This document shows, piece after piece, positions 16,766 to 26,286 of a stretch of DNA of 32,000 nucleotides. Position 1 is the first letter of the stretch, and every line of letters starts with the position of its first letter. The notes beneath the pieces are model-generated. The model ran no database searches, had not been told where the DNA came from, and was given only the letters and a program-made list of their open reading frames with translations. The translations under genes and the position numbers were made by a program. Source of the DNA: Promethearchaeota archaeon (lineage in GTDB: Archaea; Asgardarchaeota; Hermodarchaeia; Hermodarchaeales; Hermodarchaeaceae); contig JBHLMI010000024.1 in NCBI GenBank assembly GCA_048938295.1, positions 1 through 32,000 of the forward strand, read 5' to 3'.

Positions 16766-17143
16766 ATGGCGCTTCGTGATTTCCTCTATCCCTATCTTGA
16801 AGTAATTCTCGTTCTTGCGCGAGCCTTAGATGTGGATGAAGCCCAGGCCGCGTTTGGTAGTCTCTCAGAGGAGTATCAGCAAGTGGCTGCCCGGATACGA
16901 ATTGCACCACATGACGCGCAACGATTGAACCTCAAGGAGGAAGATCACGTTTTGGTAAACTCTGATATAGGTAGTGTGGTAGTGGTTGCGGAGATCCAAT
17001 CTGATCAACCTGCGGGTATGGTCGTAATGCATCCTGGACCCTGGGCATTTGCTCTCATCGAAGCAATGATTCCAAGTCAGGGCACGGAGGTCACCATTAA
17101 ACCAAGCACAGAACCTGTTACACCCCTTGACCAATTACTCTAA
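16766..17143 (+). CDS. fwdD: FwdD-like molybdopterin-dinucleotide-binding domain protein (degenerate)
   Basis: SEEYQQVAARI.I.P.D...L.LKEED.V.V.S..GSVVV...P.GMV.M.PGPWA matches FwdD; TGR and GPWAN motifs altered. Confidence 0.75.
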   Translation: MALRDFLYPYLEVILVLARALDVDEAQAAFGSLSEEYQQVAARIRIAPHDAQRLNLKEEDHVLVNSDIGSVVVVAEIQSDQPAGMVVMHPGPWAFALIEAMIPSQGTEVTIKPSTEPVTPLDQLL

Positions 17144-18588
17144 CGGGACCGATTTTTTGAAGTGGCTTTTTCACTAGCTTTTAAACTGGGTTTCATCTTT
17201 TTTTGCGCTTCGTCTTTAACGGCTGCACACAAAGGTTCGACGCGACCTCGCTCGAAAAGCAAACGTAGCCGCCAATTTCTCCGAATGATCTCTTGGAGTT
17301 TCTGAATTCGTGCCTGGGCTTGTGTTCGACTGATCTTGTCTTCAGACCACTTCTCTGATTTAGTTTGCACCGAAGTTCCGTGTTCTGTGGGAGCGATTTT
17401 TATAACACGTTCGTAGATATCATTTCGTGGGGTGCTTAGGCCTATAAGGTGGTCATAGAACCTGTGAGCTCGTGCTCGTTCCCAATCCCGAGCTTGTTCA
17501 ATTTGTGATAACGTATAGCTGTCACGGCTAACCTTGAGGACCTCTTCGGGGCAGGCGTTTTCACACGCTCCACAGAATACGCAGATAGCTTTGTTGATGG
17601 CAATTTTATCTTTATCGCCGGTCGGATAGATGGCTTTGGTGGGGCAGATGTTAAAACAATTCACGCATCCTGTTGGATCACATTTCTCTAGATTATGAAT
17701 CTCGATATCACCAGTAAGTGGTAAGGAGACCTCCAAGGCGTCAAACGGACATTTCTCAGCGCATAGTGTGCAGTCGACGCAGAGCCCGTCATCGATGGTC
17801 ATAGTTCCTTCGACTTCTGGATCCCTAATGATCCGGGGCGGTGCGCTTTCACAGGTAACCTTCACGGCATCAGAAGGACAAATCTTCTCGCATAGCCCAC
17901 AATAATCGCATTGTGTTGTATCGACTCGGATACCAACAGCAGGTGCGAAATCTGGAGGTTTTGGTTTTTCCTCCGACCAGTAAATAGTGATGCATTCTGG
18001 GCATAGCAATTCACACAATCCGCACCATGTGCATTTGTCCTCATCGATGACAATGGTTCCTTTGGCATCTGGATTCCCCCCAGCCACTCGTCTAGCAGCT
18101 TTGGGATCCTTGTAACTCACCAGTTTGGTTTTGGGGGTAACCTTAAGGTCAACAGTGATTGCATCACGGGGACAGAGTTTGGCACATAAAACACATGGCG
18201 CACATTTCTCCTCATCGAGCTTATGTTTCCCTTTCAGCCGTGAATATTGCCGATCAGCAGGGATATCATCAAATCGGGCCTCAATCGCATTGAATAGGCA
18301 GGCAGAATCGCATAAGCCACAGAAAGTGCATTTATCTTCATCAATCAGAATGAGAGGTGCCTCTTCAAGACGTCCTGCCGCAATTTCTTGCACCGGGCCC
18401 AAGGTGATAGCGTCCCAAGGGCACGGTAAACAGAGACTACAGCCAACACATCGAGACAGGTCATATTTGAGGTTCTTGTTCAGCAGCGACGTCTTCCAGT
18501 TATAACGAATGTTAGTGTCATCTAAGACTTCACTGGTCACTTTGGGGCGTTCACCGACAATAATACGGTCTCGCTGCACTTTTGTCAT
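17140..18588 (-). CDS. fwdF: Polyferredoxin, FwdF-like (8 x [4Fe-4S] motifs)
   Basis: Eight Cys clusters: CVGCSLCLPC, CTFCGLCDSAC, CAPCVLCAKLC, CTWCGLCELLC, CDYCGLCEKIC, CVDCTLCAEKC, CDPTGCVNCFNIC, CVFCGACENAC; FwdF-like N-terminus. Confidence 0.85.
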   Translation of the reverse strand: MTKVQRDRIIVGERPKVTSEVLDDTNIRYNWKTSLLNKNLKYDLSRCVGCSLCLPCPWDAITLGPVQEIAAGRLEEAPLILIDEDKCTFCGLCDSACLFNAIEARFDDIPADRQYSRLKGKHKLDEEKCAPCVLCAKLCPRDAITVDLKVTPKTKLVSYKDPKAARRVAGGNPDAKGTIVIDEDKCTWCGLCELLCPECITIYWSEEKPKPPDFAPAVGIRVDTTQCDYCGLCEKICPSDAVKVTCESAPPRIIRDPEVEGTMTIDDGLCVDCTLCAEKCPFDALEVSLPLTGDIEIHNLEKCDPTGCVNCFNICPTKAIYPTGDKDKIAINKAICVFCGACENACPEEVLKVSRDSYTLSQIEQARDWERARAHRFYDHLIGLSTPRNDIYERVIKIAPTEHGTSVQTKSEKWSEDKISRTQAQARIQKLQEIIRRNWRLRLLFERGRVEPLCAAVKDEAQKKMKPSLKASEKATSKNRSR

Positions 18589-18656
18589 AGAACTGGTTCC
18601 TATAGAAACTGCTATACTAGCTTTTGGAATCTTCGCCTATAATGCTTGTTACCGTC

Positions 18657-24500: not shown

Positions 24501-24968
24501 ATGACTGACAAAAAAGTCAACCCAATGCAATTGTACAAACTACTTCCGCAAACCAATTGCAAAAAATGTGGGATGACATGCATGGCTTTTGCCACACGAT
24601 TAGCACTCCGTGATGTCGAACTCAAAGAATGCACACCCCTCTTCGAAGAGGACCAGTATAAAGACCAACTCGCCAAACTTACAAACCTCATCACCCCTCT
24701 CCTCGACACCGAAGAAACGGGTATTAAACTTGATGAAACCAAATGCACAGGGTGTGGAAATTGCGTTGTCGTTTGTCCTGTAGATGCAACAGTGGAGCCC
24801 GAAACAGCTTCTGGAAAAGCAGCTCGAACTACAGAAACCGTCTTCCGGGTTGAAGATGGGATTGTCAAAATCATAAATCTAGAGAAATGTCGTCGGTTTC
24901 CTCCTGACCGGATGAACTGCCGGGTCTGTGAACAGGGGTGTTACGTCAAAGCCATAGAAATATGGTGA
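24501..24968 (+). CDS. fwdG: AcsC/CdhE-type N-terminal Fe-S domain fused to an FwdG-like ferredoxin
   Basis: LYKLLPQTNCKKCGMTCMAFA...ECTPL; then CTGCGNCVVVCP...VFRVEDGIVKIINLEKC...CRVCEQGC. ATG at 24501 preferred. Confidence 0.7.
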   Translation: MTDKKVNPMQLYKLLPQTNCKKCGMTCMAFATRLALRDVELKECTPLFEEDQYKDQLAKLTNLITPLLDTEETGIKLDETKCTGCGNCVVVCPVDATVEPETASGKAARTTETVFRVEDGIVKIINLEKCRRFPPDRMNCRVCEQGCYVKAIEIW

Positions 24969-25002
24969 TGCCGCTCTTCATTGTAATAAGAAGGGAAAAA
25001 CC

Positions 25003-26286
25003 GTGCAGGATACCGTGTGCTGTGGTTGTTCTGTGGTCTGTGATGACGTCGCGGTAGCGGTGAAGAAAGCAAGTCTGCAATCCCTTGGGTTATGTCGGTT
25101 AGGCCATGAGTACTGTAATTCTGTTTTTAAGAAAAGCCGACTCGCTACATCTCTGCACAAAAATGAGAAAGGAAAACAGCTACCAATACCAATCAAAGAT
25201 GCCATTCAACACGCGACCAGCCTCCTTAGAGATAGTGCAAAACCACTGTTTCTGGGCTGGTCCAACAGCACACAAGAAGCAATCCAAACTGGTTTGCAAC
25301 TAGCCCAAAACCAAAATGGGGTCTTCGATAGTACCGCGAGTTTTGAATATGGACAAATGCTTGGAGCCAAACTTAAGGGTGGTGAATCAGACCAGGTAAG
25401 TCTAGATGATGTTCGCGACTTTGCAGATCATATCGTCTATTGGGGCGTCAATCCAGCAGAAAGCCACCACCGTCACGCTAGCCGCTTCACCGTCTTTCCC
25501 AAAGGTAAGAACATCCCTGAAGGACGAGAAAGTCGCATAGTATCCGTCCTCGATGTTCGTAAAACGGAATCAATGGGGTTAGCGAACCATCAGCTTATTC
25601 TTTCTCCAATTACAGGAGATGTGGAATTCCTCCAGACATTAATCGCAGAACTGAAAGGAACAAAGCAACCGTTAGCGGAGAAAGTCGGGGGTGTACCCAC
25701 AATTGAGTTCCTCAGTTTCGCGAAGCAGCTCCGCGAAGCCGAGACCATCGCGTTATTTTATGGAAACGGGCTGATACACTCCACTCATTCATCCCAAAGC
25801 TTACTCCTTCTGAAGCAACTTGAAAAAACCCTGAACCGCGGGAAACGCCATTGTTGGACTCTCCCAATGGTTGCCTATTGTAATACTATTGGTTCAGTGA
25901 AGGTAAGCCTTGACAGTTCTAACCTGCCTTTTTCCATTGACTTCAGTTCAAATCCCCCACAGTCCGTTGCGTCAATCTCTAAGAGCTTAACAAAGGGCGA
26001 GTTCGATAGCGTAATGGTTACTAACTGGGATGCGTTAAGTCTGCTTCCTAAACCAATGGCGCAAGCCATCTCAACACTCCCGTTGATCTCCTTTTCCACC
26101 CATCCGACACTAACTACGAAAAAATCCACCATTGTCTTTCCCACAGCCTTGACTGGGGCAGAGACCCAAGGAACTACCTACCGAATGGATGGTGCAGCTG
26201 TTCTCTTAAAGCCCTTCAAAGAACCTCCAAAAGGAGTGCTCACCGAAGAGGAACTCCTTAAGCAACTTCTTACGGCACTACGATGA
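25003..26286 (+). CDS. fwdB: FwdB-like subunit lacking the metal-ligand and catalytic residues
   Basis: Collinear with FwdB over the full length (CxxCxxxCDD...C, GWS, ADxIVYWGxNP, GTTYRMDG), but TASVCHGP reads TASFEYGQ and PMRGHYN reads PMVAYCN. Confidence 0.85.
   Translation: MQDTVCCGCSVVCDDVAVAVKKASLQSLGLCRLGHEYCNSVFKKSRLATSLHKNEKGKQLPIPIKDAIQHATSLLRDSAKPLFLGWSNSTQEAIQTGLQLAQNQNGVFDSTASFEYGQMLGAKLKGGESDQVSLDDVRDFADHIVYWGVNPAESHHRHASRFTVFPKGKNIPEGRESRIVSVLDVRKTESMGLANHQLILSPITGDVEFLQTLIAELKGTKQPLAEKVGGVPTIEFLSFAKQLREAETIALFYGNGLIHSTHSSQSLLLLKQLEKTLNRGKRHCWTLPMVAYCNTIGSVKVSLDSSNLPFSIDFSSNPPQSVASISKSLTKGEFDSVMVTNWDALSLLPKPMAQAISTLPLISFSTHPTLTTKKSTIVFPTALTGAETQGTTYRMDGAAVLLKPFKEPPKGVLTEEELLKQLLTALR

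Follow-up and report, generated by a model that had tools for sequence, protein, structure and literature searches.

We analyzed a 32,000-nt window from a Promethearchaeota archaeon (assembly GCA_048938295.1, contig JBHLMI010000024.1) and found in it five genes related to the heterodisulfide reductase (Hdr) and formylmethanofuran dehydrogenase (Fwd) of methanogens. They encode a fused flavoprotein (HdrA::MvhD), a FwdF-type polyferredoxin (FwdF2), a FwdG with an additional iron-sulfur domain (FeS-FwdG), and paralogs of FwdB and FwdD (FwdB2 and FwdD2). The residues with which FwdB turns over CO2 are replaced in FwdB2, and the genes are joined to the operon for CODH/ACS (carbon monoxide dehydrogenase/acetyl-CoA synthase, or Cdh). 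Because the usual electron sink is absent and the genes adjoin cdh, the most economical reading is that the module is a wire to CODH/ACS: an Hdr-type bifurcating or confurcating system, with FwdB2 and FwdD2 as scaffold or relay, to which we would give about an even chance of being correct on the genomic evidence set out below. The window covers the opening 32 kb of contig C25 (43.7 kb), which belongs to a metagenome-assembled genome (MAG) of 2.5 Mb that is 91.6% complete and whose best protein relatives were Hermodarchaeota, Promethearchaeota and Thorarchaeota MAGs. Relatives of the module were surveyed by a library-wide HMMER search, two locus surveys and two quick maximum-likelihood trees with SH-aLRT values as their only support measure.

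Alignment of FwdB2 to the Methanothermobacter wolfeii FwdB placed Glu115 at the position of the tungsten-ligand Cys, Tyr116 at that of the catalytic His, and Val290 at that of the conserved Arg; the four Cys of the [4Fe-4S] cluster (C6, C9, C13 and C31) were retained. The protein scored 294 bits against TIGR03129, under the cut-off of 327.8. Its AlphaFold model had a mean pLDDT (predicted local distance difference test score) of 93 and superposed on active FwdB structures (5t5i_B, 8rja_B and 7bkb_H) with template-modeling (TM) scores of 0.90-0.94. The ratio of nonsynonymous to synonymous substitution (dN/dS), computed here and below against the 81%-identical ortholog, was 0.11 and indicated purifying selection. 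We conclude that FwdB2 is not a pseudogene, because this 'EY' type is intact in all 18 genomes of the window's family, its dN/dS is low and its FwdB fold is modeled with confidence. The former active-site triplet, however, varied among orthologs in the same synteny: E-Y-V/I in the Hermod-type genomes, 12 different triplets beginning with Gly, Ala or Ser in the Thor type, and C-H-S/A in the Bathy/Kor-like and Baldr types. These differences among same-synteny orthologs imply that no active site is conserved across the clade.

FwdD2 has diverged as well. It scored 43.6 bits against NF042908, for which the cut-off is 175, and positions that are invariant in canonical FwdD have changed: G-R-T has become A-R-A, Phe replaces the Asn of GPWAN, and the GMPxxKG loop has been lost. 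The gene is nevertheless under purifying selection (dN/dS 0.17). Loss of these motifs (the Gly and Thr flanking the Arg, the GPWAN Asn, and the loop ending in Lys-Gly) occurred in exactly the clades whose FwdB2 is Cys-less, the Hermod and Thor types. Where FwdB2 retains its Cys, the motifs persist: all of them at the Kor-type loci of Thermoproteota and at one Bathy locus out of two, and the Arg, Asn and Lys positions, not the Gly, in FwdD2 of Methanosarcinales. We take the lost residues to be pterin contacts, the test made being one of correlated loss. Indirect evidence on a pterin cofactor in FwdB2 conflicts, with kept FwdB positions on one side and lost FwdD2 motifs on the other; on the sequences, loss of the cofactor is likely. 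A preliminary description of the window, made from its sequence, had called this FwdB-FwdD pair dead, a term to be used with reserve, since FwdB2 retains many of the near-invariant positions of canonical FwdB.

The cofactor motifs of the electron-carrying proteins were complete. HdrA::MvhD has a full-length architecture with FAD domain, ferredoxin inserts and fused MvhD, and it covers positions 3-777 of the 777 in NF040770 (HdrA2) at a score under the model's cut-off of 1100. FAD/NAD Rossmann matches and four CxxCxxCxxxC di-cluster motifs were present, in addition to N-terminal and MvhD cysteines. The genome encodes at least six HdrA paralogs; the others adjoin HdrB and/or [NiFe] hydrogenase genes, making the HdrA of the module the odd one out. 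No HdrB or HdrC gene was found in the window, and several CCG-domain genes lie elsewhere in the genome. The four ferredoxin domains of FwdF2 carry eight [4Fe-4S] motifs and align collinearly with FwdF (221 bits against NF042909, under its cut-off of 375). HdrA, FwdF, FeS-FwdG and CooC all had dN/dS values of 0.05-0.06 (FwdF 0.06, FeS-FwdG 0.045). FwdF2 also has a charged, probably helical C-terminal tail of ~110 aa (17140-17470) that is absent from methanogen FwdF; homologs from Thor, Bathy and Thermoproteota conserve its length (proteins of about 430-490 aa, compared with 349), and it could be a docking or oligomerization element.

FeS-FwdG combines an N-terminal [4Fe-4S] domain like that of CdhE with a FwdG-like domain for two [4Fe-4S] clusters, and its 12 Cys are enough for three clusters. 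The FwdG-specific insert between the motifs was present in alignments of the C-terminal half to 5t5i_G and in one to 9sfi_U (E 1.8e-11 for the latter). Canonical FwdG lacks the extra PF04060 domain, which matched positions 1-68 of PRK04165, the gamma subunit of acetyl-CoA decarbonylase/synthase (ACDS), with E 1.9e-16 and was 40% identical over 88 aa to the N-terminus of the genome's own CdhE. Judged by these alignments, the extra domain is a paralog of the N-terminal cluster domain of CdhE, for which a role in the corrinoid's reductive reactivation has been hypothesized (PMC13370988). FeS-FwdG was the most conserved module protein across phyla, with 62-68% identity between Hermod and Thor/Bathy-like sequences compared with 33-38% for FwdB2, as would fit a hub with several partners. 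The Fe-S wire is intact, as the preliminary description had it, with eight clusters in FwdF, three in FeS-FwdG and one in FwdB, and the catalytic residues are gone from a conserved gene under purifying selection.

Alignment of eight orthologous spacers between the divergent hdrA and FeS-fwdG genes identified the conserved FeS-fwdG start, an ATG at 24501, giving a spacer of 169 bp, close to the 175 bp first estimated; the ATG at 24456 was rejected as the start because it is not conserved. Across these eight Hermod-type genomes the spacer held 60 invariant columns, in long blocks. Since the encoded proteins are only 56-90% identical, the invariant blocks are likely a shared promoter or operator. 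One relative (L012) has an insertion of ~650 bp inside this spacer.

Gene order tied the module to cdh well beyond this genome: it adjoins cooC-cdhABCDE in Hermod, Thor, Baldr, Bathy and Kor lineages. All nine of the longer Hermod-type loci had CofC, rhomboid and FwdD; then FwdF, propeller genes and HdrA on the opposite strand; then FeS-FwdG, FwdB2, CooC and, further on, CdhA. One of them (L017) lacks the propeller genes, so that fwdF abuts hdrA. FeS-FwdG lay upstream and CooC downstream of FwdB2 in 29 of 29 shorter loci (17 from the window's family and 12 from a Thor family), with HdrA divergent wherever the locus extended far enough and, in that Thor family, CdhA next wherever it was long enough. 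The Thor genes form a string, fwdG2-fwdB2-cooC-cdhABCDE-cooC, with short gaps. One Thermoproteota contig (cdhDCBA, on the FwdD side), one Methanomethylicota contig and Baldr likewise have the module directly against cdh. A Thermoprotei contig reads FeSG-FwdB2-HdrA::MvhD-FwdF-HdrC-HdrB, its hdrC-hdrB tying the module to a complete Hdr. CdhA is still encoded in each of five genomes whose module or FwdB2 lies away from cdh. The cluster was conserved in every relative examined, with more cases in Baldr, Bathy and Kor, and no canonical fwdBD pair replaced it in the same synteny; the canonical pair lies elsewhere in the genome. Neither outcome that the preliminary description had named as refuting was seen. 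The suggestion that CODH/ACS accepts the electrons gains strong backing from the operon FeSG-FwdB2-CooC-CdhA, from which a physical or electronic coupling may be inferred.

In the trees, canonical FwdB (Cys-His-Arg) was deeply divided from a FwdB2 clade (SH-aLRT 98-99). The Arg was absent from every member of the FwdB2 clade and present in all 12-16 canonical-type FwdB rows of the trees. A tblastn scan recovered 80 loci with the N-terminal CxGCSxxCxD-type motif, 76 of which had FeS-FwdG directly upstream; at six canonical Asgard FwdB loci, no FwdG was found. Cys-His or Cys-Gln is still present in the early FwdB2 branches (Baldr, Jord and Frey types), most of which lie beside a FwdA paralog, some also beside HdrA-FwdF. 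The FwdB2 genes of Methanosarcinales (fwdG2B2D2 of Methanosarcina, Methanothrix and Methanoperedens) form a supported sub-clade with C-F/L-V, C-Q-V or S-Q-L. The HdrA-linked forms, from Methanomethylicia, Baldr, Bathy, Kor-like Thermoproteota, Hermod and Thor, fall into one clade of 18 to 25 rows (support 99), in which the Hermod and Thor proteins, both without the Cys, are sisters (support 99). The simplest reading of this topology is a single loss of the Cys in the Hermod-Thor common ancestor. Overall, FwdB2 appears to have lost first the Arg, then FwdA, and then Cys/His together with the FwdD motifs.

Six loci from Baldr, Jord and other Asgard archaea (L079, L091, L082, L092, L134 and L149) encode a Cys-His or Cys-Gln FwdB2 without the Arg beside a divergent FwdA paralog that is 25-37% identical to canonical FwdA, with or without HdrA-FwdF. 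Such loci may represent a second, non-canonical Fwd-type enzyme in Asgard archaea.

We propose that the five gene products would form one soluble redox module, assembled as a complex and descended from a methanogen-type Hdr-Fwd supercomplex. HdrA::MvhD would be its flavin-based electron-bifurcating (or confurcating) core. The low-potential branch would run from HdrA through the eight clusters of FwdF and the three of FeS-FwdG to the single [4Fe-4S] cluster of FwdB2, and the high-potential branch presumably through HdrBC encoded elsewhere. Since FwdB2 and FwdD2 of the Hermod type and its Thor sister lack the residues for metal binding and CO2/formate turnover, they would act as a structural scaffold and Fe-S relay and not as a CO2 reductase, much like the C-terminal domain of NuoG in complex I. 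That domain keeps the fold of a molybdenum-bis(pyranopterin guanine dinucleotide) (Mo-bisPGD) enzyme as a structural or Fe-S subunit without catalysis at a metal site. The FwdB2 model matched it (7z7r_G) with a TMq of 0.74 at 17% identity; unlike FwdB2, which is a separate protein of FwdB size with a FwdD partner, the NuoG domain has diverged much further and forms part of a larger fused protein. Low-potential electrons would be exchanged with the CODH/ACS complex, whose operon lies directly behind fwdB2, and could flow either way: toward reduction of CO2 to CO in a reductive Wood-Ljungdahl pathway, or from oxidation of CO or acetyl-CoA to HdrA.

A bolder version, which we put forward tentatively and think rather doubtful, is that non-methanogenic archaea (Hermod- and Thorarchaeia, Baldrarchaeia, Bathyarchaeia and Korarchaeia-like lineages) build a hard-wired Hdr-polyferredoxin-pseudoFwd-CODH/ACS supercomplex. 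Bifurcation would there drive CO2 to CO and acetyl-CoA synthesis, or electrons at the level of CO would be harvested, with the former CO2 reductase as docking and relay subunit. This would amount to a second route, not dependent on Fwd, by which carbon fixation through the archaeal Wood-Ljungdahl pathway is coupled to bifurcation.

Several observations weigh against coupling to CODH/ACS. FwdB2 and FeS-FwdG are not beside cdh in Methanosarcinales and several Asgard lineages, in some of which they lie with a FwdA paralog. In this genome, two unrelated genes stand between hdrA and fwdF, and a methyltransferase gene has been inserted between fwdB2 and cooC, so that co-transcription is interrupted here. 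Adjacency to cdh could reflect nothing beyond co-regulation of Wood-Ljungdahl functions, and FwdF and FwdG, being the sole copies in the genome, might also serve the canonical FwdABCD. The EY clade keeps 46 of 72 near-invariant positions of canonical FwdB, including the motifs WGxNP..H, DxR, GxG and RMD; together with an invariant Glu115, this core would be compatible with a cofactor-bearing or catalytic role of FwdB2. Arsenite oxidase is a Mo-bisPGD enzyme that works without a protein ligand to the metal. The sequencing runs holding the gene were of sediment and mangrove DNA only, with no RNA run listed.

The module might instead be a free-standing HdrA-polyferredoxin complex that deals with soluble ferredoxin or another diffusible or unknown partner, with FwdB2, FwdD2 and FeS-FwdG as a docking or entry adaptor and the cdh linkage as a sign of shared Wood-Ljungdahl regulation. 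We consider this unlikely, although the FeS-FwdG/FwdB2/FwdD2 trio is also found apart from cdh, for instance in Methanosarcinales, Hel and Frey. The M. acetivorans polyferredoxin was dispensable in vitro for electron transfer from CODH/ACS through ferredoxin to HdrA2B2C2 (PMC5296606), and the M. hungatei complex also reduces free ferredoxin (PMC13580544). The recombinant polyferredoxin in the former study was, however, incompletely loaded with clusters, and its authors drew no firm conclusion. Moreover, the fusion to cooC-cdh is near-universal in the Hdr-linked clade and kept across phyla, a linkage tighter than co-regulation alone predicts.

It is less probable again that FwdB2/FwdD2 is a pterin- or metal-bearing enzyme whose remodeled site, marked by the invariant Glu115-Tyr116, carries out some redox reaction with electrons from HdrA. 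Among 47 EY-clade sequences only 32 columns are invariant, and Glu115 is one of them; the retained core motifs fit such an enzyme, and so does the intact fold, which is far closer to active FwdB than to FhcB. Against it stand the Thor sister clade, which has Gly, Ala or Ser followed by variable residues in identical synteny, the loss of the FwdD2 motifs in both the Hermod and Thor clades, and the want of the canonical Arg throughout the FwdB2 clade.

Only slightly less credible, in our view, and still improbable, is that the module is the core of the organism's Hdr-Fwd supercomplex, in which HdrA, FwdF and FeS-FwdG would feed the canonical FwdABCD encoded elsewhere and FwdB2 and FwdD2 would be accessory or regulatory pseudo-subunits. 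The gene inventory favors it to a degree: homologs of FwdF and FwdG occur only as the module copies, and the canonical FwdD-FwdB pair, with its Cys, His and Arg (contig C4), the single FwdA gene (C13) and the single FwdC gene (C49) are scattered without an F or G of their own. A FwdA paralog accompanies the module in Baldr and in another Asgard family. The position of FeS-FwdG argues the other way, since it lies directly 5' of FwdB2 and never of canonical FwdB, and FwdA2 was lost in the very clade that joined cdh.

The suggestion in the preliminary description of an Fhc-like complex, a formyltransferase/hydrolase releasing formate while still attached to HdrA, can be set aside as very improbable: a FwdB homolog without the catalytic Cys is the sole common feature, neither the cluster nor any cdh-linked locus has a FwdA-, FwdC- or Ftr-type gene, the FwdB2 model matched FhcB (6s6y) with a TMq of only 0.64-0.66 at 16-17% identity, and a hydrolase would, we reason, need no 12-cluster wire. 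At 355 aa, FhcB is the shorter protein; this FwdB homolog belongs to a Fwd-derived complex without redox function, in which its partners are FhcA/C/D (FwdA-, FwdC- and Ftr-like) and which, unlike the module, has neither HdrA nor a polyferredoxin.

The proposed wire to CODH/ACS has counterparts among known systems. In methanogen Hdr-Fmd, FmdF conducts the low-potential electrons of HdrA directly to FmdG/B; for groups other than methanogens, the roles of FmdF are stated to be uncharacterized (PMC13580544). The module resembles the methanogen Hdr-Fmd/Fwd complexes (Fdh-Hdr-Fmd of Methanospirillum hungatei, PDB 7bkb; Mvh-Hdr-Fmd of Methanothermobacter marburgensis, PMC13580544) in the nature and order of its parts, which are HdrA with MvhD, an eight-cluster FmdF/FwdF, FwdG, FwdB and FwdD, all homologous over their full length. 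It differs from them in lacking FwdA and FwdC, the catalytic Cys/His/Arg of FwdB, and any hydrogenase, Fdh or HdrBC gene in the cluster, and in possessing the CdhE-like domain of FwdG, the FwdF tail, the MvhD fused to HdrA and the junction with cooC-cdh.

The module also resembles the fwdG2B2D2 and hdrA-pfd genes of Methanosarcinales (PMC2838876, PMC5296606), which encode FeS-FwdG, an Arg-less FwdB2 and FwdD2, and HdrA::MvhD followed by a polyferredoxin. The two units are divergent neighbors in Methanosarcina sp. Ant1 (L165). FwdB2 of Methanosarcinales is, however, only ~30% identical to that of the window and mostly keeps the Cys (C-F/L-V or C-Q-V; S-Q-L in some Methanothrix), and the trio is not beside cdh. 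The 2010 annotation of fwdG2B2D2 in Methanosarcina describes a tungsten-type cluster that lacks A and C subunits; the cluster is constitutively transcribed and has no assigned function (PMC2838876). On acetate, where CODH/ACS supplies the electrons, M. acetivorans induces hdrA-pfd (PMC2838876, PMC5296606). Exchange of electron-transfer modules between ACDS and Fwd has a precedent in Ca. Ethanoperedens (PMC11493965). The ACDS zeta subunit and FwdI of Ca. Ethanoperedens thermophilum are, in a like manner, dedicated Fe-S/flavin modules that replace free ferredoxin on CODH/ACS and Fwd; unlike the HdrA and polyferredoxin of the present module, they are FrhB-type F420 reductases, and they were demonstrated biochemically and structurally (PMC11493965).

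The label 'undescribed' in the preliminary description needs narrowing, since members of the same family carry the name fwdG2B2D2 in Methanosarcina, where they lie beside hdrA-pfd or away from it and have expression data and no function (PMC2838876, PMC5296606). Already known are the protein families, the Hdr-to-polyferredoxin logic and this annotated trio; the five-gene module, its fusion to cooC-cdh across Asgard archaea and Thermoproteota, and the stepwise loss of residues and of FwdA appear undescribed. Our literature search turned up no account of a cdh-linked FwdB that lacks the Cys, nor of a function for fwdG2B2D2, and the databases name the module proteins 'hypothetical', '4Fe-4S binding protein' or 'FwdB'.

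How the Wood-Ljungdahl pathways of Asgard archaea and Bathyarchaeia get or dispose of electrons at about -500 mV bears on models of Asgard metabolism and of the host in eukaryogenesis. If the proposal is correct, the energetic trick that methanogens use at formyl-methanofuran would have been applied to the carbonyl branch. The module would moreover clearly exemplify an enzyme subunit that became a pseudo-enzyme scaffold, and it would offer a role for the long-orphaned fwdG2B2D2 and hdrA-pfd of Methanosarcina, which is genetically tractable.

Table 1. Coordinates of the module genes and their neighbors in the 32,000-nt window.
Feature	Coordinates	Strand	Evidence and remarks
FwdD paralog (FwdD2), 125 aa	16766-17143	+	PF01568 E 6e-13; PDB 8rja_D E 1.5e-10; convergent with fwdF
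FwdF-type polyferredoxin (FwdF2), 482 aa	17140-18588	-	5t5i_F E 3e-45 over residues 18-371; eight [4Fe-4S] motifs
Propeller-like membrane protein gene, first	18657-20027	-	
Propeller-like membrane protein gene, second	20108-21805	-	
HdrA::MvhD fusion flavoprotein (HdrA2-like), 816 aa	21881-24331	-	NF040770 918 bits; PF02662 E 6.6e-44
Divergent intergenic region hdrA / FeS-fwdG, 169 bp	24332-24500	.	Alignment of 8 orthologous spacers
FeS-FwdG, 155 aa from conserved ATG	24501-24968 (ORF opens 24456)	+	PF04060 E 4e-10; 5t5i_G E 1.4e-11
FwdB paralog (FwdB2, 'EY' type), 427 aa	25003-26286	+	5t5i_B E 7e-53
Class I methyltransferase	26490-27236	-	Between fwdB2 and cooC
CooC-type Ni-insertion ATPase, first gene of cdh operon	27418-28221	+	PF01656/NifH-family matches
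Amidohydrolase, 397 aa	29555-30748		
cdhA 5' part (CODH alpha), runs to contig position 33651	31294-32000	+	TIGR00314 E 4.5e-98 on 235 aa inside window

Open reading frame (ORF) listing and profile searches gave the gene order CofC, rhomboid protease, FwdD, FwdF, two propeller-like genes, HdrA::MvhD, FeS-FwdG, FwdB, methyltransferase, CooC, two PEMT-like genes, amidohydrolase and cdhA (Table 1). The five module genes had all been recognized in the preliminary description, which missed the two propeller genes between fwdF and hdrA; it placed fwdD adjacent, as is true with respect to fwdF (convergent, with a 4-bp overlap), not to fwdB, which is 8 kb away. Its observation that fwdA, fwdC, hdrB, hdrC and mvhAG are missing from the window extends to the whole contig, on which no FwdA, FwdC, HdrB/C (CCG domain) or [NiFe] large subunit was found, all of these being present elsewhere in the genome. 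ORFs for cdhB, cdhC and cdhD follow cdhA on the contig, and cdhE, for the large subunit of the corrinoid Fe-S protein, lies apart from the cdhABCD cluster (contig C41:64476-65894). Rfam and tRNA scans of the window returned no matches. A 157-aa ORF at 24401-24874(-) was rejected as a gene, being antisense to FeS-FwdG and without a family match.

The two propeller genes are paralogous, and their products consist of a signal-like segment at the N-terminus, an ectodomain resembling a beta-propeller (weak SBBP/delta-60 repeat matches) and one C-terminal transmembrane helix; the second protein also has a Cys/His-rich cytoplasmic tail resembling a zinc ribbon or RING. Relatives have two, one or none of them (none in L017), and we rejected them as parts of the module because they are variable or absent in relatives. 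Synonymous divergence of the second propeller gene between the window and one relative (L011) was 0.22, compared with ~0.9 for its neighbors, which suggests recent exchange.

The methyltransferase gene between fwdB2 and cooC occurs only in this genome; the corresponding gap in 29 of 29 relatives is ~40-170 bp, with one of ~1 kb. Just upstream, at ~26440-26472, is the remnant of a tRNA 3' half (T-arm, acceptor strand and CCA), not called by ARAGORN and consistent with the scar of an integrative element. Between cooC and cdhA (28243-30748), Hermod genomes have one to three PEMT/isoprenylcysteine-methyltransferase-like genes and the amidohydrolase, which is 81-88% identical among relatives; in Thor, cdhA directly follows cooC. 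We rejected the amidohydrolase as a substitute for FwdA, with which it has only a generic N-terminal amidohydrolase motif in common; the loci of Thor, Bathy and Baldr lack it altogether. Positions 1-3000 of the window are AT-rich, with a GC content of 0.36-0.37 against ~0.46 elsewhere in the window, and contain small ORFs.

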